A stretch of DNA of 64,000 nucleotides from the IMG/VR virus record IMGVR_UViG_3300044295_000252, positions 66,682 through 130,681 of that record. One strand, written 5' to 3'. Positions 26,445 through 45,644 of this stretch are shown piece by piece. Both the position numbers and the translations under genes were made by a program. This DNA comes from a virus (taxonomy: Duplodnaviria; Heunggongvirae; Uroviricota; Caudoviricetes). Within the stretch, counting starts at the first letter, position 1; each line of letters begins with the position of its first letter. Below the pieces are notes generated by a model that was not told the origin of the DNA, searched no databases, and saw nothing but the letters and a program-made list of their open reading frames with translations.

Positions 26445-26675
26445 TCATGACCATTTCAGCACAAACCAATCTCTGTCAGCGGCATCACGGAACCAAAAGT
26501 GGTGATCGTCCCACCACCAACGCATACGTAGTCCCCACCTACCGGGGCCAAATGAATCCTGACACCACTGCACCATTGCGGCTTTGTTTCCCTCACCATA
26601 CGCGAATGGCGTGACGAGGAAATAGGGTATGCCCCAGATTTCGCCAGTGTTGTTTATTAGTTCGGCACGTGGCAT
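26445..26675 (-). CDS. FxL(R/K)W small-protein family, member A1
   Basis: C-terminus ...FRDAADRDWFVLKWS. Start probably at internal Met (track ORF extends to 26810, overlapping A2). Confidence 0.5.
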   Translation of the reverse strand: MPRAELINNTGEIWGIPYFLVTPFAYGEGNKAAMVQWCQDSFGPGRWGLRMRWWWDDHHFWFRDAADRDWFVLKWS

Positions 26676-26731
26676 ATAGGGTGTAAAAATGTATGATTGC
26701 CCTGAGGTAATGGTGCCGCCATATTTTGCCG

Positions 26732-26896
26732 TTAGTTTTGCCAACGCAGCAAGTACCAAGTATAATGTGATTCCTCGCGGAAGTAAAGATGGCCGCGATG
26801 ACGCCACCATGTACCACCTTTAACCGGTAGTCCAAATGCTGTGCGACACCATTGCATCCTAGCCCAGGCCTCGGGCATTTTAGCTTTGTAAACCAT
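26732..26896 (-). CDS. FxL(R/K)W small-protein family, member A2
   Basis: C-terminus ...YFREESHYTWYLLRWQN. The track N-terminus MVCVEVAV is a frame-shadow of the upstream LRW codons; real start is at MVYKAK. Confidence 0.55.
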   Translation of the reverse strand: MVYKAKMPEAWARMQWCRTAFGLPVKGGTWWRHRGHLYFREESHYTWYLLRWQN

Positions 26897-27144
26897 CACC
26901 GCCACCTCAACACAAACCACTCAAGATCTTCTTTGCGACTGAACGCTATTTCACCAAACCGAATATTGTCGGTCCAGCGAGTCTCAGCAGTCCAGGGCCG
27001 CCAACCCGGTGCACCAAATGTATGGTAGCACCATTCACCAATCGCGTCAAGATCGGCATCCTTTAGATCCTTTAGGCCAAAGGCGGCCACATAACTCCTG
27101 GTGCGCCCTGGTATTATGGGTTCGGTATAGGTATGGATAAACAT
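26896..27144 (-). CDS. FxL(R/K)W small-protein family, member A3
   Basis: C-terminus ...FSRKEDLEWFVLRWR. Start at MFIHTY. Confidence 0.55.
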   Translation of the reverse strand: MFIHTYTEPIIPGRTRSYVAAFGLKDLKDADLDAIGEWCYHTFGAPGWRPWTAETRWTDNIRFGEIAFSRKEDLEWFVLRWR

Positions 27145-27359
27145 CACATCCACTTCAGCGCAAACCAACTGGCATCAGCAGCCAGTTCAAAGTACCAGAG
27201 ATTCCCGGCCCCGTCCCAATAAAATCTACCAGGACTCTCCTGCCATTGGCACCAATGTTTGATTTCCGGTGCGCGCCAGCGTTGTCGCGTATGTTTGGGT
27301 AGATCCACCACATGCCATGTGGCCAGGCGAGCTCGTTTGCTTTTGTTCCAGTGTTTCAT
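27144..27359 (-). CDS. FxL(R/K)W small-protein family, member A4
   Basis: C-terminus ...FELAADASWFALKWM. Confidence 0.55.
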   Translation of the reverse strand: MKHWNKSKRARLATWHVVDLPKHTRQRWRAPEIKHWCQWQESPGRFYWDGAGNLWYFELAADASWFALKWM

Positions 27360-27362
27360 GGT

Positions 27363-27575
27363 TCACATCCACCTCAGTGCAAACAGTGTAGCTAATTTTT
27401 CATCAGTAATATCGAACAAATATCCTGCATAGTCGTTGGGGTCTACGTAGTATCGGCAGGCCCAACCCTTCCCGGCCATTCCTATCCGGCTACCGGTATT
27501 ATTTATTGGCCCAACGTATTTTTCAAGCCATTCTACCATGCCTTCAATATCTTCATTTTGCGTATGTATTTTCAC
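27363..27575 (-). CDS. FxL(R/K)W small-protein family, member A5 (paralogue of B6)
   Basis: C-terminus ...DITDEKLATLFALRWM. Probable GTG start in a GTGA overlap with the upstream stop. Shares ..TQNED..GMVEWL..Y.GP.. with 42445..42666. Confidence 0.55.
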   Translation of the reverse strand: MKIHTQNEDIEGMVEWLEKYVGPINNTGSRIGMAGKGWACRYYVDPNDYAGYLFDITDEKLATLFALRWM

Positions 27576-27754
27576 ACCCACCTCAGAACAAACCAATCGT
27601 GATTGGATTTGACTTGGAACACATATCCACCAGACCCCATTTGCAGCATAAAGTATTCGACATCAGTTTGCTTCATCCACTGCTCAACTTCGACAAAATC
27701 TTGGGAGTTTGGACAATGATAGATTCCCGGAAATCGTGTACGTTTAACTTTCAT
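27572..27754 (-). CDS. FxL(R/K)W small-protein family, member A6
   Basis: C-terminus ...KSNHDWFVLRWV. ATGA overlap with the upstream gene. Confidence 0.55.
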   Translation of the reverse strand: MKVKRTRFPGIYHCPNSQDFVEVEQWMKQTDVEYFMLQMGSGGYVFQVKSNHDWFVLRWV

Positions 27755-27951
27755 AGCCATTTCAATATAAACATAGTAGCGTGGGCGCTATCCTTAAAAT
27801 AAAAATCCAGTGTTCCACGACGCTCAACTATGTTCCATTGATTATATAACAAACCTACATTTTCGGTCAACCATCCACGTATTTCATAATACTGCTGGAT
27901 ATCTGGAAAATTGATTCGGTGCGGCCAAATATCTTTTTTCAAACGTCTCAT
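27751..27951 (-). CDS. FxL(R/K)W small-protein family, member A7
   Basis: C-terminus ...FKDSAHATMFILKWL. ATGA overlap. Confidence 0.55.
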   Translation of the reverse strand: MRRLKKDIWPHRINFPDIQQYYEIRGWLTENVGLLYNQWNIVERRGTLDFYFKDSAHATMFILKWL

Positions 27952-28379
27952 GACCATCTCAGGGCAAAGAGCAAGTAATCCTGCTGATCCTTGAAAGCAA
28001 AAAACACATAGTCACCGCCACCCATCTCATCCATATGCCAACGTTGACTCCACTGATTCCATGATACTCTGTGTGATTCTGATCTGAATTTTCCCTGACA
28101 GTTTGCCCGGCACCAGTCATCAATTTCGTCGGCTCCGTACCTGACTCCACCGGGACCATAATCACTAATCAGACGGTAAGCATAGTGGTGCTGGGATTCG
28201 ATGCAGTGAACGTAGGCATAGCCTTGATACCAATTGGTGATGTCACTGGCGCGGCGTACGATGTCGGGATCATACCAACGATGATACTGCGCCCAGTTTT
28301 CGCAGTGGTGTCGTCTAAGGAAACGCTGGTCCCGCCATTCTCGATACCGTTGTCGTATCAGTTTGATGGGATTTTTCAT
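27948..28379 (-). CDS. FxL(R/K)W small-protein family, member A8 (larger, 143 aa)
   Basis: C-terminus ...FKDQQDYLLFALRWS. Start at MKNPIKL. Trp/Cys-rich N-terminal half. Confidence 0.55.
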   Translation of the reverse strand: MKNPIKLIRQRYREWRDQRFLRRHHCENWAQYHRWYDPDIVRRASDITNWYQGYAYVHCIESQHHYAYRLISDYGPGGVRYGADEIDDWCRANCQGKFRSESHRVSWNQWSQRWHMDEMGGGDYVFFAFKDQQDYLLFALRWS

Positions 28380-28570
28380 AGCCACCTCAACACAAACCAC
28401 TCAGCATCTTCACTGCGTTCAAATTTCACCGCATGTTGGAAATTGTGGATATAAAATTCCCCACCATCATGCTGGCAAAGCCATGTATATTGTTCGTCGG
28501 TCAATGATTCATTCAAACGAATATTGATCCAATGCAAACTCGGAGACGCATAGTCTCGATGATGTTTCAT
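28376..28570 (-). CDS. FxL(R/K)W small-protein family, member A9
   Basis: C-terminus ...FERSEDAEWFVLRWL. ATGA overlap. Confidence 0.55.
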   Translation of the reverse strand: MKHHRDYASPSLHWINIRLNESLTDEQYTWLCQHDGGEFYIHNFQHAVKFERSEDAEWFVLRWL

Positions 28571-28794
28571 GACCACCTCAGTGCAAACAACATGGCATCA
28601 GCGTCCGAGCGGAAAAATCCCGTGAGTTTACGGCCAACATACAGACGAATATCATATTCACCCTGGAGATTTTTCTGGCACCACGCATCATAGATGTTCT
28701 GCCCAGCTAGCCAACTAAGAGGCGCAGGAACCGTCACAGTGTGAAATCCCTGCGCCAACAGTTTCTCCCGGTTCTCAAATACGCGGATGCCCAT
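28567..28794 (-). CDS. FxL(R/K)W small-protein family, member A10
   Basis: C-terminus ...FRSDADAMLFALRWS. Start probably at MGIRVF, 5 nt after the stop of the upstream gene. Confidence 0.5.
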   Translation of the reverse strand: MGIRVFENREKLLAQGFHTVTVPAPLSWLAGQNIYDAWCQKNLQGEYDIRLYVGRKLTGFFRSDADAMLFALRWS

Positions 28795-28799
28795 GCTGT

Positions 28800-29846
28800 T
28801 TACCCATGTTTCAAGAGATACTGGTTTGAAACCGCTTTCCAATGTGCTTGGCTGTCCAGAGCCTTGAACACCAGACCCTCGCGCAGTTTGTTGTAATTCA
28901 ACTCACTATTGCCATCAGCATATTCCAGGACCTGGTCAACCGAACAATTCCCAAGTGTCGCGCAGATATTGATCACGGGCACATGTTTGAGTCCCAAATG
29001 ATCCACAAGTTCCTGGCGATCCCTGGGGCTAATATACTGACCCTTAACCACATCGTAGATGCTGTAAACATAAAAGTCCTGACCCTTTATGCCATAGTGA
29101 TTGCCCTGCACACCTTCGCCAATCAACTCACCCTGGATGGCGATGTTGTCCAGTCCCAGCGCCTGCATCCGTGCTTCAATGTCATACTTGCGAGCCTGGG
29201 CCCAAAGAGTATTACCTTCAGTTTCTTTGAGGTTGAGATTGCGGCTGCACACCAGGAACTCACCATCAATTATGGCTGCGGTCATGCTAGAACCTTCCAG
29301 CTTTTCCGTGACTTCATAGTCCAGTTCTTTGAGCTGGGGCCATTCGCTGACGAGGTTCTGGATACGTTCTTCATCAGTTTTAGGCACAGCACTGGGCCAC
29401 GCGCCCTTGACCACACCCGCTAACTGTGCGGGAACGGGCGGCTCATATTTGATGATGCCCAACCGTTCCGACACATCCATGCCAACAAAGTATTCCATGA
29501 GGCCTGCCACAGACAGTGGTAATATCAGATCCTGGCTCAGCTGTTTACGCAGACGCACAGTGCGAAGTCGTTCACCACTAATGCCTTCAAACTCGCTGGG
29601 CTCTCGGCCCTTGCTGAGGAACGGTGCCAAAGCATGGGGAATCCAGCTGTCTACTTCACAGTAGATCACTGGGTCACCCACTTTGAATTCGCCTTTCTTT
29701 ACCACCACAGTCCAACCATCCACCACCGCGCATTCAATGGCGTCAGCATCGGGGATGGCACGGATTTCTGCGATACATCTGATCGTTGCTAATTTTCTCA
29801 TGTTATTCCTCAACTTTTGTGATGCGGACTTCAACCGTGACGTCAA
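28800..29846 (-). CDS. putative RNA ligase (nucleotidyltransferase superfamily, phage Rnl-like)
   Basis: N-terminus KLATIRCIAEIRAIPDADAIE..DGWTVVVKKGEFKVGD is characteristic of the RNA_ligase family. KLEGS resembles the KxDG adenylation motif I. 348 aa. Confidence 0.5.
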   Translation of the reverse strand: MTSRLKSASQKLRNNMRKLATIRCIAEIRAIPDADAIECAVVDGWTVVVKKGEFKVGDPVIYCEVDSWIPHALAPFLSKGREPSEFEGISGERLRTVRLRKQLSQDLILPLSVAGLMEYFVGMDVSERLGIIKYEPPVPAQLAGVVKGAWPSAVPKTDEERIQNLVSEWPQLKELDYEVTEKLEGSSMTAAIIDGEFLVCSRNLNLKETEGNTLWAQARKYDIEARMQALGLDNIAIQGELIGEGVQGNHYGIKGQDFYVYSIYDVVKGQYISPRDRQELVDHLGLKHVPVINICATLGNCSVDQVLEYADGNSELNYNKLREGLVFKALDSQAHWKAVSNQYLLKHG

Positions 29847-30300
29847 AATTATCCTTTAGATCGTCCAATTCCAACAGGCCACAGCGAGTGCAGCGTGGAC
29901 CGTATTCTGCGCTGTAGAGCCCGTTGGCGACATCATGGTCTGAGCAGCTGGTTCTGCTGTGCGGCACCAACTCTAACAGTGTGTCACGATGTTTGAGCAC
30001 CAGATCAAGACGCTGTTGCCGTTCTGCCAACCTGGCCTGTCTGGCTTCTTCGGCCCTGCGCTTGAGTTCATCCTGCAATTCTTTGTCGGTTACTTTGGTG
30101 AGATCCATGTTTCTCTCCTTATCACGTTCAAACAATCCAGATTCTGGTGTGGGATATGTATACCAGGGGCCATACATGCGCTGGAACTCCTGGGCCCAAC
30201 GCCATTGTTCACGACGACCAGCTTCGTTGCGCGAAAATTGCAGCATGTGATTCCATTTGGGGAATCCATGATATCGGCCATTAAGCTTTACGTATTTCAT
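29803..30300 (-). CDS. hypothetical protein with C-terminal CxxC..CxxC zinc ribbon-like pairs
   Basis: Start taken as MKYVKLNGRY (ATG 30298-30300), 8 nt downstream of a -10 box (leaderless). The track start at 30342 would lie beyond the promoter. Confidence 0.45.
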   Translation of the reverse strand: MKYVKLNGRYHGFPKWNHMLQFSRNEAGRREQWRWAQEFQRMYGPWYTYPTPESGLFERDKERNMDLTKVTDKELQDELKRRAEEARQARLAERQQRLDLVLKHRDTLLELVPHSRTSCSDHDVANGLYSAEYGPRCTRCGLLELDDLKDNFDVTVEVRITKVEE

Positions 30301-30307
30301 ATGGCAT

Positions 30308-30336
30308 ATTATATGCAAAATACACCAAAATGTCAA
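30308..30336 (-). promoter_or_regulatory. sigma70-type promoter (-35 TTGACA 30331-30336, 17-nt spacer, -10 TATAAT 30308-30313), leaderless
   Basis: Reverse-complement reads TTGACAttttggtgtattttgcaTATAATatgccat ATG. Confidence 0.6.
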
Positions 30337-30383
30337 TATCAACTACGTATAAAGAAGCCCGTGGAATCAATAGGTTAGCAGAT

Positions 30384-30590
30384 CTAGTGCGAACATCTTA
30401 AAGCAAACATCATGGCGTCGTCTGCTGATTCAAAACACCAAACTAGCTGGTCACTGGTTACGTAATTGATCATTTCACCAGACAAATTGTCCTCGCACCA
30501 ATCCAATAGGGCAAATAGGTCATTAGTGTGGAAAAGCATTTTGGTCCTAACCTGATGCTGGGACTCAAATAAATCATTAATTTTGCTCAT
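30384..30590 (-). CDS. FxL(R/K)W small-protein family, member A11 (outlier; ends ..MMFALRCSH)
   Basis: C-terminus FESADDAMMFALRCSH. Confidence 0.5.
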   Translation of the reverse strand: MSKINDLFESQHQVRTKMLFHTNDLFALLDWCEDNLSGEMINYVTSDQLVWCFESADDAMMFALRCSH

Positions 30591-30596
30591 TGTATA

Positions 30597-30875
30597 TCAC
30601 GCCCCAAACAGCAACGTCAACATCAGGAAGCATCGTTCAGCAGAATCGCGGCTACGATAACGCCACTTACAGCCCAACGCACCACTTTTGTTACGGTCAG
30701 GATCACAAATGTCGCGAGCCTGTTCCTTCTGTTCTTTAGTTAAACTGTCGCGCAGATGGGGATAAGAGAGATTTTTGATCTCGTAGCAGGGGCGGCGTAT
30801 TCCACCGTTGCCCGGGCCGCGTCGTTTGACCTCTACCAGTTCAAAGAGTTTATTACGTTGCAGGACGCGATTCAT
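30597..30875 (-). CDS. hypothetical basic protein
   Basis: Start at MNRVLQ chosen so as not to overlap the pilin gene (track ORF extends to 30935). Confidence 0.35.
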   Translation of the reverse strand: MNRVLQRNKLFELVEVKRRGPGNGGIRRPCYEIKNLSYPHLRDSLTKEQKEQARDICDPDRNKSGALGCKWRYRSRDSAERCFLMLTLLFGA

Positions 30876-30876
30876 G

Positions 30877-31140
30877 TTAGTTACAGCGGATACCGTGACC
30901 CTGATCATCCAGGATCTGCCGCACAGAACCATCACTGCCGGCGATGAATTTGAAACCTTCCATGCAGCGTATATCAGTGTTGGACTGCTGGCTCACACTG
31001 CCCAAGCTTGACATTGGAACCATGCGACGCTCCACACTTATAGGTTGGCCAAAGATCGCGGGCAATGCGATAGCGGAAATGATGCCAACAATCGTAATTA
31101 CTATCATGAGTTCAATCAAAGTAAATCCCTGCTGTCGCAT
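30877..31140 (-). CDS. Type IV pilin / pseudopilin-like protein (prepilin N-methylation motif)
   Basis: MRQQG|FTLIELMIVITIVGIISAIALPA is a canonical class III signal with cleavage after Gly, Phe+1 and Glu+5. A C-terminal Cys pair (disulfide loop) is present. AGGAGAATAAC SD before ATG at 31138-31140. The upstream gene ends ..GGAGAATAA. Confidence 0.7.
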   Translation of the reverse strand: MRQQGFTLIELMIVITIVGIISAIALPAIFGQPISVERRMVPMSSLGSVSQQSNTDIRCMEGFKFIAGSDGSVRQILDDQGHGIRCN

Positions 31141-31141
31141 G

Positions 31142-31417
31142 TTATTCTCCTGGTTCATATTTCTTTTTGAGTTTGAGATACAATTGGTATTCGGCCTTTT
31201 CTTCCGCTTGTTTCTGCTTCAGATGATCACGTTCCATGGCCTGTTGGACATATAGCTTCAAATCACCGCCCTGCAGACCTTTTTTGCGATAACCTTCGGC
31301 GGCGTGTCTAGCTTCAGTGCTATAGCAATCCCACCGAACATCTTTGATACCGGCGCTTTCACATATTGCAGCCCACTCATCCATGTCATCATACCATCTT
31401 GAAATACCGTCACTCAT
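31142..31417 (-). CDS. hypothetical protein
   Basis: 91-aa ORF with a charged C-terminus. Confidence 0.45.
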   Translation of the reverse strand: MSDGISRWYDDMDEWAAICESAGIKDVRWDCYSTEARHAAEGYRKKGLQGGDLKLYVQQAMERDHLKQKQAEEKAEYQLYLKLKKKYEPGE

Positions 31418-31430
31418 TGTTATTCCCGTG

Positions 31431-31595
31431 TTAAACTAGGTAGAGCCACAATACAAAAACTGGAAACCCGGCAAACACCATACCCAAAAACGCTCTAAGG
31501 GCTAGCAATGCATCATTGGTTACTACCCCTGCCAATCCGGTTATGCAGCCTATTACTAAGATGCTGAATCCCAGTGCTTCCAGTATTTGTTTCAT
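31431..31595 (-). CDS. small membrane protein (54 aa, 2 predicted TM helices), not in track
   Basis: MKQILEALGFSILVIGCITGLAGVVTNDALLALRAFLGMVFAGFPVFVLWLYLV. ATG overlaps the TAA of the SPFH gene (TAATG). Confidence 0.4.
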   Translation of the reverse strand: MKQILEALGFSILVIGCITGLAGVVTNDALLALRAFLGMVFAGFPVFVLWLYLV

Positions 31596-34285: not shown

Positions 34286-34293
34286 GTAAACGG

Positions 34294-36378: not shown

Positions 36379-36406
36379 ATTATACATGAATGGTCCGGAA
36401 TGTCAA
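36379..36406 (-). promoter_or_regulatory. sigma70-type promoter (-35 TTGACA 36401-36406, 16-nt spacer, -10 TATAAT 36379-36384)
   Basis: Reverse-complement reads TTGACAttccggaccattcatgTATAATagctgcatcgttaatactaggagttag ATG. Confidence 0.75.
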
Positions 36407-37172: not shown

Positions 37173-37376
37173 ATCTATTTCCTTTAATTAAAGTTAATAC
37201 CTTAAACCAATATTTAGTGTATAACAACTGCTGAGAAAAGTAAACAGTTAATTATGCCAAAACAATGGCACATCGAAATGTGCCACTGTGGTAGTTGGGT
37301 AACAAGGCCTATTTCCCGCCCCGTGAGGTTTACGCCGCTAGGCGAAGATCCTCAGAATAAACGTTGTCATTTGCGT

Positions 37377-37574
37377 TTATAGTTTTGCTTCATTAACGAC
37401 GATCGCCTGTCGTGCTGTCTGTTCCGTTACTCCTTGCCCTGTCGAAACCTTGTCACCCCCATCAGAAAGAATCTCTTTCATAACCTCAACTCGTCCATCT
37501 ATGTGTTCGTAAATACCATATTGTATGTTATCACAAACAAATAAGATTCTTCTAAGTTTTGGTTTAGCCTGCAT
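37377..37574 (-). CDS. hypothetical small protein (66 aa; MQAKPKLRRILFV..)
   Basis: Weak. Lies in a ~500-nt mostly noncoding, structured region. Start abuts the tRNA-like 3' element. Confidence 0.25.
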   Translation of the reverse strand: MQAKPKLRRILFVCDNIQYGIYEHIDGRVEVMKEILSDGGDKVSTGQGVTEQTARQAIVVNEAKL

Positions 37575-37587
37575 AAAAAATCCCTTT

Positions 37588-37615
37588 TGGTGGAGGTGAG
37601 GAGAATCGAACTCCT
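37588..37615 (-). ncRNA. tRNA 3'-half-like element (T-arm AGGAG-TTCGATT-CTCCT + CACCTCC-A-CCA); no complete cloverleaf
   Basis: Reverse-complement of 37588-37615 is aggagttcgattctcctcacctccacca. No matching 5' acceptor strand (GGAGGTG) within 500 nt. Confidence 0.3.
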
Positions 37616-37699
37616 GTCCAGAACACATTTTACTTCACTTCATACAGCAATAGACTACAGTATATATTTATTTTTAACCAAGGTCAAATTAAAGTCATT

Positions 37700-38008
37700 T
37701 TATGATTGCGGCTGAAGTTGTTTTTTTAAGTCGTCAACCGTCTTTACTATATCTAATTCCTGTGGTTTGGAATGCGGATTTAATGGTAATGGTAATTGTT
37801 GCCATTCTGATTCTGATACTGAACTCACCAGCGCAAGTTCATAAGCATGACCATCGGAGCCATAAAACTCCACAGTATCAAAACCAACTAAACTGTGCGC
37901 GGCCCGTTCTGCTACACGAGATAATTCCTGCAATGCAGCTGGTTCTGCCACAATATATGCTCTGGTTTTGGGCCCTGAATGCGAATATAAATGTAGTCTT
38001 GCTTTCAT
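37700..38008 (-). CDS. hypothetical protein (102 aa)
   Basis: ATGA overlap with the DnaE-like gene. Confidence 0.45.
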   Translation of the reverse strand: MKARLHLYSHSGPKTRAYIVAEPAALQELSRVAERAAHSLVGFDTVEFYGSDGHAYELALVSSVSESEWQQLPLPLNPHSKPQELDIVKTVDDLKKQLQPQS

Positions 38009-39681
38009 GTTATATGTGCTATGTCTTTTAGGTTAAGTTTTTTACTTTTATATACGGTAACATATTCGCTATTGTTTTTATAGCCTAGTTTGCCCATTCC
38101 CCATAATATAGGCTGTTCATGGAAACTGGCAGCATGTGGCAACACTACGTCCAAATACCTGCCATTGCCAGTACCCAACGTGGCAAAGGTAATATATTCC
38201 TTTGGTCCACTTTTGAAGACTCTATAATTAGCAATAAGACCACAAAACTCAATTTGCCCTGGGCGTCTTACTTCCTGACACACAGGTATAAATCTGTGAC
38301 TATGCCAGCGTCCATTCGCCATAAGATCGTTTATTTCATTACCTTCCATAATAGCGGGCACTGCGCCAGCTAGTTTGGCCTCCTGATAATATACCCAATG
38401 AGCATATGATCCCTGACAGTGTTTTAATGTGGCACGCCAAAACTTTTCAGGATTGTGTGCCTTTTGATAAGCTAGAGCCCAGATTAATCTTCCCAAATTA
38501 GTGGCATGTGCTCTACATAGACCAAAATGACTTAGCTCACGCAGTGCTAATAATACCTCATCACGTCTGGGATTATCACCCACCATTTGCATAAACTCAA
38601 ATATTTTTTCCTCGTTCTTTTTTGCGAATGCTCTGCGCCACATATCTGCTTCATATTGATTACAGCCCAATATCTCACCAATTAGCATTATGGCATCATC
38701 CTCAAACACAATATGATCGTTGAAACTATCCTGACTCCAGTCCTGGAAACTATTTGCGCGACGACGACCCATAGTAGCTACTGGTCTAATCAGGGCGGTA
38801 GCTAAAACACAATCCGAACGTGTGCGGGTTTTTAAGGCTCTGAACAATCTTTTCATAGCTGGACTTTCGCCTTGAGTAACACCTAACGTATTACCAGTCA
38901 TCAATAATTGAGCAGTATCATAGTCTTCTTCTGGATATGATAAAAGATCTCGTTGTTCTATCTCCCACAATTGACTTAATCCACGATTAGCTAAAATGTC
39001 TATTTTAAAATGTTCTAAATCCTCAATCTCATATTTGTCTAATAAAATTTGATTTTTTGCATTGATTAGGCTTTTTGGTACACTACGGTCAAAAATCAAT
39101 ATTCCACCACAGTGTTTACTGATGGCTCTTTTTTTGCCCTGCAACTTGTTGGCAAGACGTTCTGCTTCTGCAACGTATTGTTCTTCTACGACATCAGCAA
39201 GTTTAAAATTCCTTTTCAGCTTACCTTTTGCGCCATAGCGTTTTGCAGCTTCGCGTATTGCACTCTTTTCTTTATAGGTAACATAATTGCTTACTCGTGC
39301 ACTTTGCCCAGGCCAACGTTTGAATATTCTATTCATTACAGTTTCCTGTTGCCAATGTGGGAAATCTAGATCAATGTCTGGCAAGTCATCACGTTTTGGA
39401 TTCATAAAACGTGATAATGGAATTCTTTCCTGCACAGGATCTACATCGCTTATACCGAGAAGATAGCAGACAAGACTACTGCCTGCAGATCCGCGTGTGA
39501 TGTGTGGTATATCTTTTGTGAGATCTAATATTTCGCGAACACGAAGAAAATGTTTCGCAAATCCTAACTTTGCAATGATTTCTAATTCTTCTTCTAGTCT
39601 TTTTGAATATTCTTCTGTATTAGATAATTGTCTTGTGAATAGAGATATAAGTTTTTCAAGTTCATCAAATCTGTCGCCCAT
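38005..39681 (-). CDS. DNA polymerase III alpha (DnaE, C-family)-like catalytic protein lacking the PHP domain
   Basis: ELEIIAKLGFAKHFLRV, TRGSAGSSLVCYLLGISDVDP and RFMNPKRDDLPDIDLDF match the DnaE palm with catalytic Asp residues. C-terminal OB-like segment. Only 558 aa. Confidence 0.75.
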   Translation of the reverse strand: MGDRFDELEKLISLFTRQLSNTEEYSKRLEEELEIIAKLGFAKHFLRVREILDLTKDIPHITRGSAGSSLVCYLLGISDVDPVQERIPLSRFMNPKRDDLPDIDLDFPHWQQETVMNRIFKRWPGQSARVSNYVTYKEKSAIREAAKRYGAKGKLKRNFKLADVVEEQYVAEAERLANKLQGKKRAISKHCGGILIFDRSVPKSLINAKNQILLDKYEIEDLEHFKIDILANRGLSQLWEIEQRDLLSYPEEDYDTAQLLMTGNTLGVTQGESPAMKRLFRALKTRTRSDCVLATALIRPVATMGRRRANSFQDWSQDSFNDHIVFEDDAIMLIGEILGCNQYEADMWRRAFAKKNEEKIFEFMQMVGDNPRRDEVLLALRELSHFGLCRAHATNLGRLIWALAYQKAHNPEKFWRATLKHCQGSYAHWVYYQEAKLAGAVPAIMEGNEINDLMANGRWHSHRFIPVCQEVRRPGQIEFCGLIANYRVFKSGPKEYITFATLGTGNGRYLDVVLPHAASFHEQPILWGMGKLGYKNNSEYVTVYKSKKLNLKDIAHIT

Positions 39682-39985: not shown

Positions 39986-40174
39986 AGCAAAAAGTTGAGC
40001 AGTAGTTTGTATAGCCTTAACCTGGGTCCGGATACTCCTGGTAGTGCTATTTTTGTCGCTGCTCCAGCTGCCGTCCTCTAAAGACGCAGTGCCCGTTGAT
40101 CGAAATCAAACGAGGTTAGTGTTCCTTGTATTTACACAGCCTACGCTAATTATAGTTCAAAGTCAACCTATATA

Positions 40175-41065
40175 TTACCAAACGATATATCCGCGACAAT
40201 AACCATAGGGACGATTTGCAGCATCAGTAAATGCCTGCTGCCAATTACTACGCTGATACCCCTGTGTCCAAAAATGATCAACATTAAGATCACCACTGCT
40301 GATCCAGCGTTGGGCCATACGCATACAGCTGATGAACTGTGGATTGCGCGGGCTTGGAAACATAACAGTAGCAGCCCGCCACAACAAATATTCATATGTG
40401 GTTGTAACCGCAGGATGTTTTGATGCAGCCTGTATCAACAGTCCATTTTCTTTTAAATTACTATGCTCGGTATCATTACCTAGATCAATTACTACATCAT
40501 AATCCTGACTGGTTCCCATTAGCAAACGATCGCCCCATAATTCCAAATTATGACTACCCAGTACATCAATACAGTTAAATTCCACGTGGTTCTGTAGCAG
40601 TGTGTGATATGCTACCCAGCTTAAAAATCCAGATCCTTTAATTAGTATACTGCGTTCTGGTCCACTACGTTCAGCAATTTCCCTAATACATTGCATAATA
40701 ACGTTCACACCACAGGCCACTGGTTCCAGTATGTAACGCTGATGCGGTTCTGGTACCGCGACATAAGTGCCGTAACGAGCATTATAATAATCTGCATAAG
40801 CAGGCTCGCCTCTAGTAGCCACATAATCACCCACACCCACATCAATAATATTTGATCCCACTGCTGTTACTTGGCCCAGTCCTTCGTGCCCCTGCATGTG
40901 TATGGGCAGCGGACCAAAACGACCCTGCATCATGTCTATGTCGCTGCGGCACACTCCAGTCATTACCGCACGAACTTCGATTTCATCTTTGCCAATATCA
41001 GGTTTATCCCAAGCGGTTTCAGTGAATTCGCCAGTACCGGCGGTCTGCAGAATCTTAACCTTCAT
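40175..41065 (-). CDS. Zn-dependent alcohol dehydrogenase-like (MDR superfamily) oxidoreductase
   Basis: GVCRSD catalytic-zinc motif, GHEG, Rossmann region (IKGSGFLSW). 296 aa. Confidence 0.7.
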   Translation of the reverse strand: MKVKILQTAGTGEFTETAWDKPDIGKDEIEVRAVMTGVCRSDIDMMQGRFGPLPIHMQGHEGLGQVTAVGSNIIDVGVGDYVATRGEPAYADYYNARYGTYVAVPEPHQRYILEPVACGVNVIMQCIREIAERSGPERSILIKGSGFLSWVAYHTLLQNHVEFNCIDVLGSHNLELWGDRLLMGTSQDYDVVIDLGNDTEHSNLKENGLLIQAASKHPAVTTTYEYLLWRAATVMFPSPRNPQFISCMRMAQRWISSGDLNVDHFWTQGYQRSNWQQAFTDAANRPYGYCRGYIVW

Positions 41066-41315
41066 TGTATTGCTCTCCTAAGTATTTCAATATAAAAAAT
41101 GTCTTCATAGATTCATCATAAAAATCCAAGCAAAAAACTACCCTATACTGATAGTCAATTAAATTAGCGTTCCAATAGGTTCCACTATGCCGTCTTACTG
41201 TGCAGCCCAATTCACGTCGCATCACATAAGTGATATTAATGCGTGGACCATATTCGGCCGATAATCGAGTGTATAGTGCAGCCCACTGCTCTGGAGTGAA
41301 TTCTAAGGGTTTCAT
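41055..41315 (-). CDS. hypothetical protein
   Basis: 86-aa ORF. Confidence 0.45.
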   Translation of the reverse strand: MKPLEFTPEQWAALYTRLSAEYGPRINITYVMRRELGCTVRRHSGTYWNANLIDYQYRVVFCLDFYDESMKTFFILKYLGEQYNEG

Positions 41316-41545
41316 TCTGTGAATTGATTACGACCCAACATAAAGAAGTCAACTTCGGCTTCACTGCTAAAGGCAAAACCAAAAGGATCGCCTCGCCAAC
41401 CGCGCACCACTCGAACGTCTAGTCCGCGCTCACGCGCCCAGGCCAGTGTTTCGGCTACGAAATCGTCACTAAATATTTTGCCTTCTTCCTCAGTAACCAT
41501 CAGTGGAAATTCTGTGATTGGATGTGGTCTGACTTTAAGTTTCAT
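41312..41545 (-). CDS. small protein, divergent member B1 of the second array
   Basis: ..FGFAFSSEAEVDFFML.. resembles the family motif but is not terminal. Confidence 0.4.
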   Translation of the reverse strand: MKLKVRPHPITEFPLMVTEEEGKIFSDDFVAETLAWARERGLDVRVVRGWRGDPFGFAFSSEAEVDFFMLGRNQFTE

Positions 41546-41546
41546 A

Positions 41547-41762
41547 TTAAGCGTATTTCAATAAAAATAGTGTGCGATCTTCGTTGGTATCAAAACAAAG
41601 GTCCACAGTTCTTGGTTGTCCTTGACCCCACTCAAGATGATAATTGCCGGGATGCACCTCTTTGAATACTGTTTCCATTTCTTTAAGAGTTACATCATCC
41701 GCAGGCTCATGAGCAAATGTTTCTTGTAGATGCCACATTGATTCTTCATATCGCATTGGCAT
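41547..41762 (-). CDS. FxL(R/K)W small-protein family, member B2
   Basis: C-terminus ...FDTNEDRTLFLLKYA. Confidence 0.5.
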   Translation of the reverse strand: MPMRYEESMWHLQETFAHEPADDVTLKEMETVFKEVHPGNYHLEWGQGQPRTVDLCFDTNEDRTLFLLKYA

Positions 41763-41793
41763 ATAATAAACAATTTTCCTATCTCAGTCAAGC

Positions 41794-42006
41794 TCACTGC
41801 CAACGTAAGATGAAAAGTGTAGCATCCTCTTCTCGGTCAAATCTTATATAAGGATCCCAACGACTAGTCTGTGCATTATACTCACGGTAAACCCAATCGT
41901 CAAAGTCAACAAAAGGATCAACACTATCTGATCTTGAAACCCAAACGTTATCGTAAAAATAATCAACTAACTTTTCAGAATATAATGTTTTAAGTATCTT
42001 AGTCAT
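41794..42006 (-). CDS. FxL(R/K)W small-protein family, member B3
   Basis: C-terminus ...FDREEDATLFILRWQ. Confidence 0.55.
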   Translation of the reverse strand: MTKILKTLYSEKLVDYFYDNVWVSRSDSVDPFVDFDDWVYREYNAQTSRWDPYIRFDREEDATLFILRWQ

Positions 42007-42226
42007 ATTGCTGTGCTAATATTTCAAATAATGTTGCATATTCGCTAAAGGGTTCGATGTGGAAACTGAACGTCCCACGCCAAACTATTCGTTTATAGCA
42101 CTGTTCCATCCAGACCCAACGATTACCAATGGTGCGATGTGGCAGTAGGGCAAAGGTCTTGTACCAGTTGATCTCTACGTTGACTATGGGATCACGCTCT
42201 AACACGAATTGGTATTTTCCTTTCAT
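41999..42226 (-). CDS. small protein, member B4 (divergent C-terminus ..ATLFEILAQQYD)
   Basis: Start at MKGKYQF. The track N-terminus MVRTEVA is the frame-shadow artefact. Confidence 0.45.
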   Translation of the reverse strand: MKGKYQFVLERDPIVNVEINWYKTFALLPHRTIGNRWVWMEQCYKRIVWRGTFSFHIEPFSEYATLFEILAQQYD

Positions 42227-42441
42227 AGCCACCTCAGTGCGAACCATACCTGTTGTTCTTTGGTCCTAAAGTACCAGGGCTTTTCAAAAACCGCATTGAT
42301 AAAAACATCATCTTCTCCCCAACCCTGTTGTCTACACCATTCACGCATTAGATTCCAATGTCGAAATTGTTCATGGGGGATGTCACTGGGGAATCTTGGC
42401 GTCACTCCGGGCCCACAGGCTTGAAATTTACGTTCGTCCAT
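42223..42441 (-). CDS. FxL(R/K)W small-protein family, member B5
   Basis: C-terminus ...FRTKEQQVWFALRWL. ATGA overlap. Confidence 0.55.
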   Translation of the reverse strand: MDERKFQACGPGVTPRFPSDIPHEQFRHWNLMREWCRQQGWGEDDVFINAVFEKPWYFRTKEQQVWFALRWL

Positions 42442-42444
42442 AGT

Positions 42445-42666
42445 TCACACCCACCTCAGGGTAAATAATGTTGCTAATTTTTCATCAGGAATATCCACTG
42501 TACAAATTATATCTATACCGTCTATGCCATGGGCTAAACCATATCGCAAAGACCAATCCTGCCCGGACAGGCCTCTAGCGGTATCGGCAGCGGTCACTGG
42601 CCCAATGTATTTTATGAGCCAGTCTACCATGCCGTCCCAGTCCTCATTTTGCGTGGAGATTTTCAT
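42445..42666 (-). CDS. FxL(R/K)W small-protein family, member B6 (paralogue of A5)
   Basis: C-terminus ...DIPDEKLATLFTLRWV. Start at MKISTQNED. ATGA overlap. Confidence 0.55.
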   Translation of the reverse strand: MKISTQNEDWDGMVDWLIKYIGPVTAADTARGLSGQDWSLRYGLAHGIDGIDIICTVDIPDEKLATLFTLRWV

Positions 42667-43046
42667 GCCCATTTCATCGCTGTTATTGTGGCCCATTTGC
42701 CTTTGCCCCAAATAAATTTAACTTCCAGCCCGGTAAATTTATGCTGCAAATTCCAAGCGCGACCACGACGGCCAACATTGGCTTCTAACCATGTGAGTAG
42801 AGCAGATAAATTATCCGGATACTTTAGTGTGATCACCGTGCCGGGAACCCAATCCCAATATTTGTTACTGCACCAACGTTGGAATCTTCGCCAACGTGAT
42901 ATACGACCCATAGTAAACATTTGACCTGCAGACCCTGTCATTGGTTGTGTGTTTATTAGTTCATTAGCTATTAGATTGGGCAGAACCTTGCGTATCATGG
43001 GTAAAATTACTTTCTGTATTTCCTTTATTTCTTTATCTTCACTCAT
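42663..43046 (-). CDS. FxL(R/K)W-related small protein, member B7 (ends ..ITAMKWA)
   Basis: 127 aa. C-terminus ...KWATITAMKWA. Confidence 0.5.
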   Translation of the reverse strand: MSEDKEIKEIQKVILPMIRKVLPNLIANELINTQPMTGSAGQMFTMGRISRWRRFQRWCSNKYWDWVPGTVITLKYPDNLSALLTWLEANVGRRGRAWNLQHKFTGLEVKFIWGKGKWATITAMKWA

Positions 43047-43279
43047 TGTGGCCACCTCAATAATGTCATGGTCAATTGCTCATCGGTGATCAATGCTCTG
43101 CAATCTTCTTTGCCGACACCGTTTATACAATAGACCATATCGTCGTCATCACCAAACGTGTTCCTGATCCAGCGTAAAATTTCACTGCCTCGACGGCCGT
43201 AAAATACACATTCCCAGCGACCATGATAGTAGCTGCTGGGATGAAAGTCCGCGTCACGAATATAAACAGATGGTTTCAT
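43043..43279 (-). CDS. FxL(R/K)W small-protein family, member B8
   Basis: C-terminus ...ITDEQLTMTLLRWPQ. Confidence 0.5.
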   Translation of the reverse strand: MKPSVYIRDADFHPSSYYHGRWECVFYGRRGSEILRWIRNTFGDDDDMVYCINGVGKEDCRALITDEQLTMTLLRWPQ

Positions 43280-43282
43280 TCT

Positions 43283-43579
43283 CTACGACCATTTCAACAC
43301 AAACAACGTCATATCCGACTCATTGAAAAATTCCAAGTGGCACCTGCCATCAACTTTTGTCAACACCGCACCTTGGTCAAATAACCAATCACCAAACTTA
43401 CGATACCGTATACTGTCCCACAAATGCACATTTGGTTTTGGTGGTGGCACCATATAATTTTGATACTGTGCAACGTACCCCGAGTCCGTCAGAAACTGTT
43501 GTGCAGCATTGCGTAAACAAGCCTCAGATTCCAGTTTGGCCAATTTCATGTCACTTATGTCCAGCGCAATACGAACCAA
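43283..43579 (-). CDS. FxL(R/K)W small-protein family, member B9
   Basis: C-terminus ...FNESDMTLFVLKWS. 5' end uncertain. Confidence 0.5.
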   Translation of the reverse strand: MVRIALDISDMKLAKLESEACLRNAAQQFLTDSGYVAQYQNYMVPPPKPNVHLWDSIRYRKFGDWLFDQGAVLTKVDGRCHLEFFNESDMTLFVLKWS

Positions 43580-43740
43580 GTTTCCTGCTGCGGGGTATCA
43601 AACAACAATCCACCAAAGCCATCGGGATAACCACCATATTCCTGTTCGATGAAATCCAAGACCTGGGTAATGTCTGCATGCCCGCGTTCTCGCAGAAGAT
43701 GCAACATTACCTTATGTTTGTAATCGTCAAAGTTGATCAC
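43555..43740 (-). CDS. FxL(R/K)W small-protein family, member B10
   Basis: C-terminus ...FDTPQQETWFVLRWT. ATGA overlap. Confidence 0.55.
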   Translation of the reverse strand: MINFDDYKHKVMLHLLRERGHADITQVLDFIEQEYGGYPDGFGGLLFDTPQQETWFVLRWT

Positions 43741-43961
43741 GAGAACTTCAATGCAAACATTATAGCATCTTGCTCGCGAGCAAAACTGTATATTAGTTCT
43801 TTGGCAGTATGCTCCACATGCCAGGGTCTGGATTCGTCAACCAAGTCTCGAAATTTAGCATAGGTTCCCACATTATCTACCATCCAAGCATTTATAGGAC
43901 TTTCGTTTATATAACGATTTGGCTTGTTAGGCTGCCGTAACACTATTCTAGCTGCAATCAT
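43737..43961 (-). CDS. FxL(R/K)W small-protein family, member B11
   Basis: C-terminus ...FAREQDAIMFALKFS. ATGA overlap. Confidence 0.55.
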   Translation of the reverse strand: MIAARIVLRQPNKPNRYINESPINAWMVDNVGTYAKFRDLVDESRPWHVEHTAKELIYSFAREQDAIMFALKFS

Positions 43962-44167
43962 GACCACCTCAACAAAAATAACGCCACATCCTCTTCTTTG
44001 GCAAACTTTATCCAGCCACCGTGATAATCCCAGCGACGGTCATTGGCGGGATTGCCAAATGTAGCAAAACACCAACCAAGCACATAAGGTGATGCAATAC
44101 TTCCCGGGGTCCAATAGGTTTCCCAGGCAAATTCACGGTCAGGTCTATGTCGAAAATCCCAGTTCAT
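43958..44167 (-). CDS. FxL(R/K)W small-protein family, member B12
   Basis: C-terminus ...FAKEEDVALFLLRWS. Confidence 0.55.
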   Translation of the reverse strand: MNWDFRHRPDREFAWETYWTPGSIASPYVLGWCFATFGNPANDRRWDYHGGWIKFAKEEDVALFLLRWS

Positions 44168-44168
44168 A

Positions 44169-44399
44169 TTAACCAACAGGTATACTAGACAATTTTACCC
44201 AAAAGAATTCCCGGTCATCAAAATGGTTTTGATCCTGTCGATCTTTGATGACCCGCACCGTACCATCATTGGACTCGGCCCAGGCCTTTTCGGCCATCGC
44301 CAATACCCGCATGGGCATGTTTAGATCATTTACTTCGCCCACATGTATTAGATAATGCGGCGGTGGCAAATGTTTTGGCAGTTTAAAATAATAGTTCAT
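44169..44399 (-). CDS. small protein B13 (no terminal motif)
   Basis: 77 aa, embedded in the array. ATGA overlap with the upstream member. Confidence 0.45.
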   Translation of the reverse strand: MNYYFKLPKHLPPPHYLIHVGEVNDLNMPMRVLAMAEKAWAESNDGTVRVIKDRQDQNHFDDREFFWVKLSSIPVG

Positions 44400-44770
44400 T
44401 GCCATTTAAGATGGAACAAAGTGAGTTCTTCGTCGCTTTGCAAATAAATGGTGCTATGGTAACGTGGCCCGCGTGGTTTGGTGCGAGTATCAAAAGACCA
44501 TTTTGTCCAGCTACGTTTCCTACCATGTTCATTCCACCACTGATATTCCACGGCCGGCCCCCAAGTGGCATAACACCACTCTCTTACGCCAAGAAACTCT
44601 TCAACTTCCATTCTAATCTGCCATTTGAAATAGCCAAACAGATCGTTTCTGGCGTCAATCTTACGTATAAGAAAAGATTTCACTGGTGCTGTTCCCATAT
44701 AAGCCTGTAGGATAGGATGTATCTTATATGCGGCCTGTTTGCCAATACGATACCACTTATTTGAGTTCAT
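44396..44770 (-). CDS. FxL(R/K)W small-protein family, member B14 (124 aa)
   Basis: C-terminus ...LQSDEELTLFHLKWQ. Start probably at MNSNKW. Confidence 0.5.
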   Translation of the reverse strand: MNSNKWYRIGKQAAYKIHPILQAYMGTAPVKSFLIRKIDARNDLFGYFKWQIRMEVEEFLGVREWCYATWGPAVEYQWWNEHGRKRSWTKWSFDTRTKPRGPRYHSTIYLQSDEELTLFHLKWQ

Positions 44771-45644
44771 CAATGATTTTGTGGATCCACAGATCACATT
44801 GTTGTTGACGATACCAAAAGTCATCATCGGCTAAATGATCCACGCAGTCCTTGATCATGTTGCCATACACATAATCAGGGCAAAGTCCAAGATCAAACCG
44901 CGATATGATGCCAGCGGTATAGAAGCTAACTTGCACATTGTCATCATCCAAACTGCGCCAGTCTGCAGTGATATCAATGTTGTAGTCAGGCCGCTCAAAG
45001 GCAACATGAACAAAGTCATCAACATCATACACGCCCTGGGGATTTATAGTGCCATAATCAGTACTGGTCAAATCACTGAGCCGCCAGTTTTGGCTACGCA
45101 TACTGCCGCTGGGCATCAAGGACTCATAGTCAGGTACGACGGCAGCTACAATACTCAGCAGGTGCGGCAATAGGTCACGGCTCACTCCGCCCCACGCATA
45201 TTGCCTCTGAGTAAACCAACTACCGGGACTGGGCACACGATCGTGATTGATCCAGTTCAGACGTATCAGTCGAGTTACCGGCAACATCGCTTGCCACTCA
45301 GCTATCCAGGGTCGCCACTGATTATTTTTGACCATTGTGATACGCTTATAGGGAAACGTATTGATCAAATTACGCCACCGTTGTTCAGTTTGCAGACCGG
45401 GCTTTTCCACGAATACGATGTTGCTGCGCTCAGCTACGCGATATGCAAGCTCTTCGTGAGTAAAATTGGGTGTACAAATATGCGCGACATCATAGTTCTG
45501 TGTCAGCGCAGAGTCAAGGTTGAGATATGTTGCATACTTATTGGTATCTGGATCTACGGTTACAACGTCATAGCCCAGAATCTCTAGCTGTTGTTTATAC
45601 AGTTTACCAATGCCCATACCTACTACCAATGCCTGTCTATTCAT
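44757..45644 (-). CDS. Gfo/Idh/MocA-family NAD(P)-dependent oxidoreductase
   Basis: N-terminal Rossmann fold VVGMGIGKLY. Conserved EKP motif (VFVEKP). 295 aa. Confidence 0.65.
   Translation of the reverse strand: MNRQALVVGMGIGKLYKQQLEILGYDVVTVDPDTNKYATYLNLDSALTQNYDVAHICTPNFTHEELAYRVAERSNIVFVEKPGLQTEQRWRNLINTFPYKRITMVKNNQWRPWIAEWQAMLPVTRLIRLNWINHDRVPSPGSWFTQRQYAWGGVSRDLLPHLLSIVAAVVPDYESLMPSGSMRSQNWRLSDLTSTDYGTINPQGVYDVDDFVHVAFERPDYNIDITADWRSLDDDNVQVSFYTAGIISRFDLGLCPDYVYGNMIKDCVDHLADDDFWYRQQQCDLWIHKIIDELK

Follow-up and report, generated by a model that had tools for sequence, protein, structure and literature searches.

We analysed a 64,000-nucleotide stretch of DNA from a member of the Caudoviricetes (hereafter the window; positions 66,682 to 130,681 of the IMG/VR virus record IMGVR_UViG_3300044295_000252) that carries two arrays, A and B, of small tryptophan-rich genes. 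An earlier note on this DNA, made by a model from the letters alone, had described about 24 tandem paralogues of one protein family ending in F-x-L-[RK]-W. All of the family genes lie on the minus strand where that note had placed them, and its count holds, with 23 supported members and one probable member (41055-41315). In what follows, A1-A11 and B1-B15 are the array genes of the window, P-numbers are database proteins and L-numbers are compared loci. One of these, L005, is a related strain with 85-96% nucleotide identity to the window.

Members of the family in the window

A strict regular expression for the C-terminal motif matched 19 of 308 minus-strand stop-to-stop open reading frames (ORFs) and, weakly, 1 of 345 on the plus strand. 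At E ≤ 6.5e-6, a hidden Markov model (HMM) seeded with the last 34 residues found 20 ORFs, none of them on the plus strand or outside the coordinates of the earlier note. We also used a non-circular profile, built mostly from database proteins and with just six window members in its training set. This profile recovered 14 untrained window members at E = 5e-13 to 1e-3 and B7 at 0.009. The motif counts and the recovery of untrained members place the C-terminal similarity above chance. A deeper profile and HHalign also supported 43043-43279, 42663-43046 and 41312-41545. By contrast, B2 (44169-44399) and B11 (41999-42226) gave no meaningful HHalign match and were rejected as members; B2 has a loose resemblance in the MAFFT alignment only.

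The pair 27363..27575 (A6) and 42445..42666 (B9) had been called orthologous along its whole length. The full-length similarity is real (50% identity, E = 3e-23), but the two genes are paralogues because both lie in one genome. The remaining paralogue pairs share 25-47% identity over partial lengths, which indicates that the duplications are old.

Array A opens with A1 (28567..28794, 75 aa), the start of which lies 5 nt past the stop of the RNA ligase gene immediately upstream (HMM E = 1.7e-7 with the non-circular profile). Its orthologue in L005 is 96% identical, with a ratio of nonsynonymous to synonymous substitution rates (dN/dS) of 0.11. A2 (28376..28570, 64 aa), found by the seed HMM, overlaps A1 by ATGA, and its 3′ end is the breakpoint of a two-gene indel relative to L005. 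A3 (27948..28379, 143 aa) has a long N-terminal extension (HMM E = 1.2e-9); P0082 is its orthologue and a related 'GGGDYIFFACQD...' copy is present in L007. A4 (27751..27951, 66 aa; HMM E = 5.3e-13) has orthologues in P0001, P0003, P0080 and P0027. Orthologues of A5 (27572..27754, 60 aa; HMM E = 2e-5) that carry '...SGGY.FQV..NH.WFVLRW' occur in L007, L011 and L013. A6 encodes 70 aa from a GTG start. A7 (27144..27359, 71 aa) was found by both the seed and the non-circular HMM, and has related copies in L007 and L013. A8 (26896..27144, 82 aa) and A9 (26732..26896, 54 aa) each have an alternative GTG start, at 27147 and 26899, respectively. The orthologues of A8 are P0005, P0008, P0009, P0139, P0107 and P0081, and those of A9, which both the seed and the non-circular HMM found, are P0070, P0112 and P0122. 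A10 (26445..26810; HMM E = 1.4e-12) encodes 121 aa from the ATG at 26810, which has an AAGGTGG Shine-Dalgarno site; a TTG at 26759 is an alternative. A11 (30384..30590, 68 aa; HMM E = 1.3e-7) stands isolated upstream of the array A operon and ends in ...FALRCSH; dN/dS against its L005 orthologue is 0.25.

The first gene of array B is B1 (44396..44770, 124 aa; HMM E = 1.5e-6), with an uncertain start that may lie as far up as 44827. It is followed by B2, an array gene of 76 aa, and by B3 (43958..44167, 69 aa), which is nearest to the family consensus (HMM E = 1e-17, with B3 in the profile's training set). B4 (43737..43961, 74 aa; HMM E = 1.2e-8) ends in ...FALKFS and has the orthologues P0004 and P0097. 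B5 (43555..43740, 61 aa, GTG start) scored E = 1e-3 with the non-circular profile and 1.1e-11 with the window seed profile, and B6 (43283..43549, 88 aa) scored E = 1.7e-5. B7 (43043..43279, 78 aa) is divergent and ends in ...TLLRWPQ; its E value of 0.009 became 0.0016 with the deeper profile, and it has a clear orthologue in L007 ('FGEDDDMIY...DEQLTLMIIKWT'). B8 (42663..43046, 127 aa) is also divergent, with the family domain at E = 0.0038 and a capsid-like N-terminus. Next come B9 (73 aa; non-circular HMM), B10 (42223..42441, 72 aa; HMM E = 2.4e-5), the 75-aa array gene B11, B12 (41794..42006, 70 aa; seed and non-circular HMM) and B13 (41547..41762, 71 aa; HMM E = 1.1e-4), which ends in ...FLLKYA. 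B14 (41312..41545, 77 aa) is divergent and has lost the LRW ending (...FFMLGRNQFTE). It aligned with the family in HHalign over 46 columns (probability 83%, E = 9e-6), and a search with the family profile picked up its orthologues P0013 and P0014. B15 (41055..41315, 86 aa, ...FFILKYLGEQYNEG) is a probable degenerate member, for which HHalign gave E = 8e-4 but a probability of only 24%, over the C-terminal 22 columns only. Two possible distant members lie outside the arrays on the same strand, at 22631..22972 (HMM E = 7.8e-4) and 20407..20709 (HMM E = 0.0066; ...YTYYLLRWGTDT).

Domain anatomy and predicted fold

The earlier note had taken the C-terminal block for the only strongly conserved feature. 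Full-length and core alignments showed instead that the whole core of ~50 aa is conserved. It runs from h..h..W[CL]....G through a loop containing (R)W and a strand h.F to [DE].DA..F.L[RK]W, which is separated from the stop by one residue. In an alignment of 103 sequences the most conserved columns were W32 (99%), C33 (77%), G38 (87%), W46 (98%), F55 (93%), D60 (84%), F64 (96%), L66 (98%), R/K67 (99%) and W68 (96%). The conserved charged positions amount to one Asp, one Arg/Lys and a Glu of moderate conservation, and no conserved basic patch was found in this alignment. Isoelectric points (pI) range from 4.4 to 10.3, with about half of the members acidic and a third basic. Aromatic residues are unusually frequent (W makes up 5.9% of database members; W, F and Y together make up 10-23% of each window member). 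The N-terminal extensions differ among members, and one kind is a capsid-derived segment.

AlphaFold2 modelled A8 from an alignment of the paralogues only with a predicted local distance difference test score (pLDDT) of 81.5, and B3 from a deep alignment with a pLDDT of 91.2 and a predicted template modelling score of 0.78. Both models have the order beta-beta-alpha-beta-beta-alpha, and from them the core is predicted to be a compact two-layer alpha/beta domain in which the conserved W, W, F, F, L and W residues are patterned as a hydrophobic core. Because the FxLRW block forms the C-terminal helix in both models, the 'docking peptide' proposed earlier would be a core structural element, a helix of buried pattern in a small globular domain. 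Thus, the suggested check by AlphaFold2 bore out a conserved helix and spoke against a docking motif. In the database proteins P0037, P0125 and P0041, two copies of the domain are present per polypeptide, and the module may work in pairs.

Comparison with described families

With up to 103 members scanned, we found no family-level match in Pfam, PHROGs, NCBIfam or PADLOC. In Pfam, sets of 10, 38 and 9 members gave no hit to the shared domain, even with thresholds of E ≤ 0.1 to 1. Matches of one member each to phrog_2218 and phrog_24569 (E ~0.004-0.007) were discarded as marginal. A sequence profile search of the PDB found no relative of the family, and a hit there to the mTOR FRB domain (E ~0.5) was put down to chance. 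The best Foldseek match against the PDB had E = 1.8, and the fold matches were all weak and generic, at 5-18% identity. In BFVD the only matches were family members entered as 'Uncharacterized protein [uncultured Caudovirales phage]' (probability ~1.0, identity 20-33%). No confident match of the shared domain to a virion structural protein, by sequence or by fold, was found in Pfam, PHROGs, the PDB, Foldseek or BFVD, and the literature searched held no description of the family. The statement that the family corresponds to no described domain therefore stands for all of these sequence and fold libraries.

One fold resemblance deserves comment. DCoH, or pterin-4a-carbinolamine dehydratase (PCD; PDB 2ebb and 1uso; acRAF, 4low), has the beta-beta-alpha-beta-beta-alpha fold in common with the family. 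However, its identity to the family is 5-8%, there is no Pfam pterin dehydratase hit, and the N-terminal strands of the family are variable or, in the shortest members, absent. PCD/DCoH proteins have conserved catalytic histidines, whereas the family has no such column, the top His frequency being 8% (position 60). On the models, the likeness is one of fold only. An alternative reading of the core as a double-stranded-RNA-binding domain (dsRBD) of alpha-beta-beta-beta-alpha order was rejected, as neither structure search gave a dsRBD.

Small proteins of Pfam family DUF7205 occur within or beside the arrays of other phages (L011 412-654; L012 2912-3154; L013 20120-20252, at the 3′ end of the locus). 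Their C-terminus (...SDMTWFMLK...) is like the last helix of the family, and a distant kinship is possible.

Distribution in other phages

The family is not peculiar to this genome. An exhaustive HMMER profile search retrieved 1,994 representative protein clusters at E ≤ 1e-3. Among the 150 clusters listed, nearly all proteins had 52-157 aa and carried the domain at the C-terminus, and the ten database members that we looked up were all unnamed or 'hypothetical'. A word-indexed search returned orthologues from the window phage's own lineage only. In the cluster of P0020, formed at 90% identity, a 56-aa phage family member is grouped with a fungal protein of 1,069 aa (KAJ4291966.1, Kalmusia sp.); the fungal entry is probably phage contamination or a gene-model artefact.

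Unrelated contigs have the same architecture, same-strand arrays of small genes with 11-25 copies per 11-23 kb. There are 25 members in 20 kb of a 356-kb contig (L007), 24-25 in 20 kb of each of two ~105-kb contigs (L009, L010), 11 in 10.9 kb of a 12-kb NCBI contig (L011) and 13 in 20 kb of a 24-kb ENA contig (L013). The first 23 kb of the cultured Sinorhizobium phage Phosso (469 kb; L006) holds 13 members, all annotated as hypothetical. Orthologues in other phages were recognizable for A3, A4, A5, A7, A8, A9, B3, B4 and B7. The carrier phages span 34-49% guanine plus cytosine (GC), and the sub-lineages are still recognizable across them. Among cultured phages, tblastn with P0021 found Phosso only, and tblastn with A3, P0016 and P0108 gave no match. 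A distant blastn search with housekeeping genes of L009 also gave no match. T4 was rejected as a carrier, with no HMM hit below E = 0.09 over ~150 kb that included all of its early regions. Together, these matches indicate an old family with a wide spread among large and huge phages.

Promoters and signals for translational coupling

Perfect TTGACA-N16/17-TATAAT sites number 12 in the window and all lie on the minus strand (25539, 26044, 26423, 30336, 35176, 35534, 36406, 45690, 47384, 50975, 59707 and 62141), compared with a chance expectation, by our own arithmetic, of ~0.02. Many of them start TTGACATTT, and several have TG just before the -10 hexamer. As had been noted, the arrays lie next to such promoters, and the operons of both are headed by perfect sigma-70 consensus sites. 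The site at 30308..30336 (-), with N17 spacing and a 12/12 match, heads an operon of a small ORF, the RNA ligase gene and array A. The site at 45662..45690 (-), also 12/12 and with an extended -10 TG, heads an operon of an oxidoreductase-like gene, array B and an ADH-like gene. Strong same-strand promoters were also found in L009 and L011. Perfect host-type promoters of this kind point to early transcription by the unmodified host RNA polymerase. The promoter at 36406 directly follows a terminator with a 12-bp stem (36440-36414), an arrangement like that of the promoter-early stem-loop (PeSL) elements discussed below.

At most junctions within the arrays, genes overlap by 4 nt (ATGA or GTGA; spacing -4, the most frequent value), and at others they lie 1-5 nt apart; overlaps of 8, 11 and 14 nt and a gap of 31 nt were each seen once. 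The Arg codon of the motif is AGG in 9 of 14 cases as opposed to 8.4% elsewhere (Fisher p = 5e-7). The L-R-W codons CTG AGG TGG thereby supply a GAGGTG Shine-Dalgarno sequence five bases upstream of the next ATG or GTG. Similar figures were obtained for L007 (AGG in 12 of 15; ATGA at 20 of 25 junctions) and L009 (AGG in 10 of 14). The recurring 'MVCxEV' N-termini of the ORF track are an artefact of the same codons, being the next gene's frame read from a GTG or TTG start through them. The AGG enrichment, together with repeats at the junctions, agrees with the claim of the earlier note that the motif is conserved at the nucleotide level. Its proposal of translational coupling also fits, in that the expected signals (stop/start overlap and a Shine-Dalgarno sequence inside the gene) are present here and in L007 and L009. 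Phosso uses CGC or CGT as well as AGG for the Arg of the ending, and this shows that the motif is also conserved at the protein level, independently of codon choice.

Recombination and selection

A repeat search found eight copies of a ~28-nt element at gene-length spacing across array A (26891..28589, -). On the coding strand it reads GGTTTG..CTGAGGTGG..ATGA, which comprises the W-F-x-L-R-W codons, the Shine-Dalgarno sequence and the stop/start overlap. L005 has three family members that the window lacks, and the two differ by the gain or loss of two genes with a breakpoint within the 3′ motif. The A2|A3 junction of the window is a chimera, of which the upstream side corresponds to the 3′ end of L005 A2 and the downstream side to the L005 X2|A3 junction, with the crossover inside TTGAGGTGG. 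By this comparison, the conserved 3′ motif is at the same time a homologous recombination site at which whole gene cassettes are added or removed between strains.

Between the window and L005 the dN/dS of orthologues is 0.11-0.47, compared with 0.24-0.27 in neighbouring genes. These ratios indicate that orthologues are under purifying selection, and sub-lineages are kept between phages. The N-terminal halves had been described as hypervariable. With rates like those of the neighbours, they are better described as specific to sub-lineages and conserved in unrelated phages than as fast evolving.

Other differences between the two strains lie close to array A. Relative to L005 2138-2735, ~415 nt are missing from the window at 29803-30342 (-). 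In L005 this stretch comprises a clear family member (HMM E = 1.3e-6) at 2403-2735 and, upstream of that, the 3′ part of a small gene that also looks family-like in sequence. The 179-aa ORF of the window at 29803-30342, in which the N-terminal part of the upstream gene is in frame with the next gene (MDLTKVTDKEL...), looks like a fusion remnant. L005 also has ~1.9 kb (3052-4937) just upstream of the RNA ligase gene that is absent from the window, containing two small genes and, on the opposite strand, a GIY-YIG (LEM-3-type) homing endonuclease gene. The N-termini of the two RNA ligases are unlike.

A capsid-derived segment in B8

Residues 8-46 of B8 match positions 2-40 of Pfam Gp23 (PF07068; E = 2e-9, 37.8 bits, cutoff 24.4), and residues 7-46 match residues 88-127 of T4 gp23 by BLASTP (E = 7e-9). 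In B8 and the P0046-type members this N-terminal segment of Gp23 (..P.LIA.....VQPM..P.G..F..) is confined to the N-terminal extension. No match to the capsid body was found in the 376-position model beyond positions 2-40. From these alignments we conclude that the N-terminus of B8 is a copy of a T4-type major capsid segment fused to the family domain. The segment occurs in one of the ~24 window members, and at least 12 divergent database members share the same architecture of capsid segment, KYKFSRAKWY element and family domain. The aligned stretch includes what we take to be the Gol region, residues 93-122 of gp23. As a comparison, B8 is a 127-aa protein of an early operon that lacks the capsid body, and a segment homologous to Gol heads a recurrent sub-family of the domain. 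In a review (PMC3014915), Gol is described as the gp23 region with the highest conservation and as a segment that binds EF-Tu; it also triggers the Lit protease.

The source phage and the gene setting

The window has 43.6% GC and gave no nucleotide relative, for itself or for either array, among 50,697 phage records. Its gene content and relatives suggest that the source phage is huge and very divergent. The genes of huge-phage type include a fragment of a DnaE-type Pol III alpha subunit, the RNA ligase, a MoxR-AAA protein with a VWA metallopeptidase, a Band-7 protein, NT5C, radical-SAM/SPASM enzymes and NAMPT. The top protein relative of the Pol III fragment comes from a 484-kb uncultured phage (37% identity), and JGI metagenome contigs of up to 137 kb carry proteins identical or nearly identical to those of the window.

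The NAMPT gene lies at 58235-59614 (-). In L011 an NMNAT/NUDIX gene and NAMPT (4706-7162) adjoin the family array. NAD-salvage genes are known as counter-defence genes, and RNA ligase has likewise been tied to counter-defence, so that this gene company would suit accessory or counter-defence genes.

The Pol III alpha gene (38005-39681, -) encodes 558 aa with the NTPase and finger domains only, which suggests a split or truncated polymerase gene. A phage transfer-messenger RNA (tmRNA) is present at 37263-37701 (-; Rfam beta_tmRNA 117.7 bits, tmRNA_permuted 144.7 bits). ARAGORN predicts its tag peptide as ANDNVYSEDLRLAA, and the tmRNA type may hint at a betaproteobacterial host. We also found a group I catalytic intron at 62466-62660 (-; Rfam RF00028, 55.9 bits, gathering score 50) and a small protein (30877-31158, -) whose N-terminus resembles that of type IV pilins (GFTLIELMIVITIVGI...); the L005 orthologue of this protein has a Pfam N_methyl domain. 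An 807-aa protein at 1350-3773 (+), with many repeats of a unit like VSNAVSIVSAAQLSTWNAVSNEISARAAASAALETHINTV, is probably a fibre. The idea that the three ~810-aa genes at 1350-8751 are paralogues was rejected; of these, 1350-3773 was compared with 3804-6257 (817 aa) and the two are not similar.

Possible functions of the arrays

The best explanation of these data, which we hold tentatively and stop short of calling probable, is that one old family, set in early coupled operons and shuffled by recombination at its motif, forms a repertoire of binders for host takeover or counter-defence. The domain would be a stable scaffold, its varied surface, charge and N-terminal extensions would set the binding target, and each sub-lineage would bind another macromolecular target early in infection. 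The arrays would be transcribed early as polycistronic units behind host-type sigma-70 promoters, with the L-R-W codons and the ATGA/GTGA overlaps coupling the translation of consecutive genes. We favour this explanation because the core is conserved, the surface, charge and extensions are varied, the operons appear to be early, the neighbours are accessory genes and the copy content is variable.

Several points weigh against it. No sequence or fold match to a characterized anti-defence, anti-CRISPR or takeover protein was found. The early timing is read from the promoter consensus only, and the division into core and surface comes from residue type and position relative to the predicted secondary-structure elements. 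Purifying selection at the strain level and the depth to which sub-lineages are conserved speak against a rapid arms race, and would equally fit housekeeping in the phage's own cycle. The capsid-derived N-terminus of the B8 type might instead indicate a function in morphogenesis or translation.

A more specific form of the binder explanation, which we consider unlikely as a whole, joins a dedicated viral binder scaffold with a Gol-type capsid mimic and a plug-and-play junction. Large phages would keep dozens of versions of the domain, made early and aimed at host immunity and physiology, as a repertoire whose functional counterpart in poxviruses would be their expanded immunomodulator families. 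The sub-family with the Gol segment would act as an early mimic that blunts or pre-empts Lit-like or CapRel-like capsid sensors or, alternatively, occupies the EF-Tu site for the capsid protein. The Shine-Dalgarno/ATGA motif inside the coding sequence would let any recombined cassette be expressed at once.

Other functions need to be weighed against the binder repertoire. The domain could be a small nucleic-acid-binding module, with exposed aromatic residues on the sheet face that would touch the nucleic acid as in folds like those of dsRBDs or RNA recognition motifs, and the paralogues could be RNA or DNA regulators that control translation, mRNA stability or transcription of the phage or the host. 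The two-layer alpha/beta sandwich with one sheet face free in the models, the aromatic content of the family and the basic charge of about a third of its members are all in line with this. Half of the members, however, are acidic, with pI values down to 4.4, the conserved charges (one Asp, a moderate Glu and one Arg/Lys) form no basic patch, and the fold matches are all weak and generic (5-18% identity); overall, we regard such a module as improbable. The possibility that the proteins serve the phage's own late functions, as helpers or regulators of the translation, folding or assembly of the capsid protein, seems to us quite improbable. Here, the B8-type N-terminus would engage the partner of the Gol region of gp23, which in T4 is EF-Tu. 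The match of B8 to Gp23 and to T4 gp23 88-127, the recurrence of the capsid-segment architecture in at least 12 divergent proteins, and a mode of selection and depth of conservation that suit housekeeping speak for it. On the other hand, the segment is present in only one of ~24 members, the shared domain matches no virion protein in the libraries searched, the arrays stand behind host-type promoters among accessory genes and not in a structural module, and copy content varies between close strains, which would be unusual for assembly factors.

Two further alternatives put the 3′ motif, and not the protein, at the centre. The cassettes could be largely selfish or near-neutral, spreading by a motif that is both a recombination site and a built-in ribosome-binding site, with proteins that contribute little. 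A gain/loss breakpoint inside the motif, junction repeats, unequal copy number between strains and the analogy with PeSL-mediated shuffling of ORFans in T4-type phages (PMC2839356) speak for this. Yet dN/dS is 0.11-0.47, sub-lineages are recognizable across phages of 34-49% GC, the fold is conserved and confidently predicted, and Phosso keeps the protein motif via different codons; we hold this account to be very improbable. The view that there is no protein family at all, and that a repeated nucleotide element acting as a ribosome-binding or junction signal is merely being translated, draws on the nucleotide-level junction repeats and the strong AGG bias. It is effectively refuted by conservation across the whole ~50-aa domain, the CGC and CGT codons beside AGG in the L-R-W/F ending of Phosso, the 1,994 matching clusters, an AlphaFold2 pLDDT of 91 and purifying selection.

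If the paralogues do bind host targets early, the family would offer a large and so far unexploited supply of anti-defence or takeover proteins. Whatever the function, the conserved C-terminus also provides the next gene with its ribosome-binding site and is where cassettes recombine. One small domain fills ~10% of the 64-kb window, and dense stretches of similar size in other large phages. New here is a family of ~2,000 clusters with a confident predicted fold and clear sub-lineages that is in no curated library searched, and the cultured carrier Phosso opens it to experiment.

Comparison with known systems

The small early takeover proteins of T4 (Dmd, Arn, Stp, AsiA, Alc and Ndd; NC_000866) are similar to the array proteins in size and early location and are mostly non-essential and accessory. 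However, they are products of unrelated single-copy genes, and T4 has no member of the family (HMM E > 0.09, ~150 kb).

Closer parallels are found in the PeSL cassettes of the hyperplastic regions of T4-type phages, where ORFans are flanked by an intergenic promoter and stem-loop (Arbiol et al. 2010, PMC2839356). Both those regions and the arrays are series of small non-core genes, mostly unknown, in early regions with strong promoters resembling sigma-70 ones, and in both close strains differ in gene content by recombination at a short repeated motif. In the arrays, an indel between close strains that is bounded by the repeated motif is seen in the two-gene difference from L005, with its crossover in TTGAGGTGG. 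The differences are in the layout. The PeSL motif is intergenic, whereas that of the arrays lies inside the coding sequence (L-R-W codons, Shine-Dalgarno sequence, ATGA). The arrays are putatively coupled operons without intergenic space, and hence without room for intergenic elements (apart from one 31-nt gap), and perfect promoters stand at the operon heads only rather than at each cassette. PeSL cassettes are unrelated ORFans, whereas the cassettes of the arrays are paralogues of one domain family.

In this last respect the arrays are more like the expanded multigene families, or 'genomic accordions', of large DNA viruses such as poxviruses and giant viruses (review, PMC13359090), in which one scaffold is also multiplied in tandem, with variable copy number and a large accessory repertoire. 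Accordions are recent amplifications, whereas the paralogues of the arrays are ancient (25-50% identical) and under purifying selection. The closest described phenomena are thus PeSL cassette shuffling and accordion-like gene-family dynamics.

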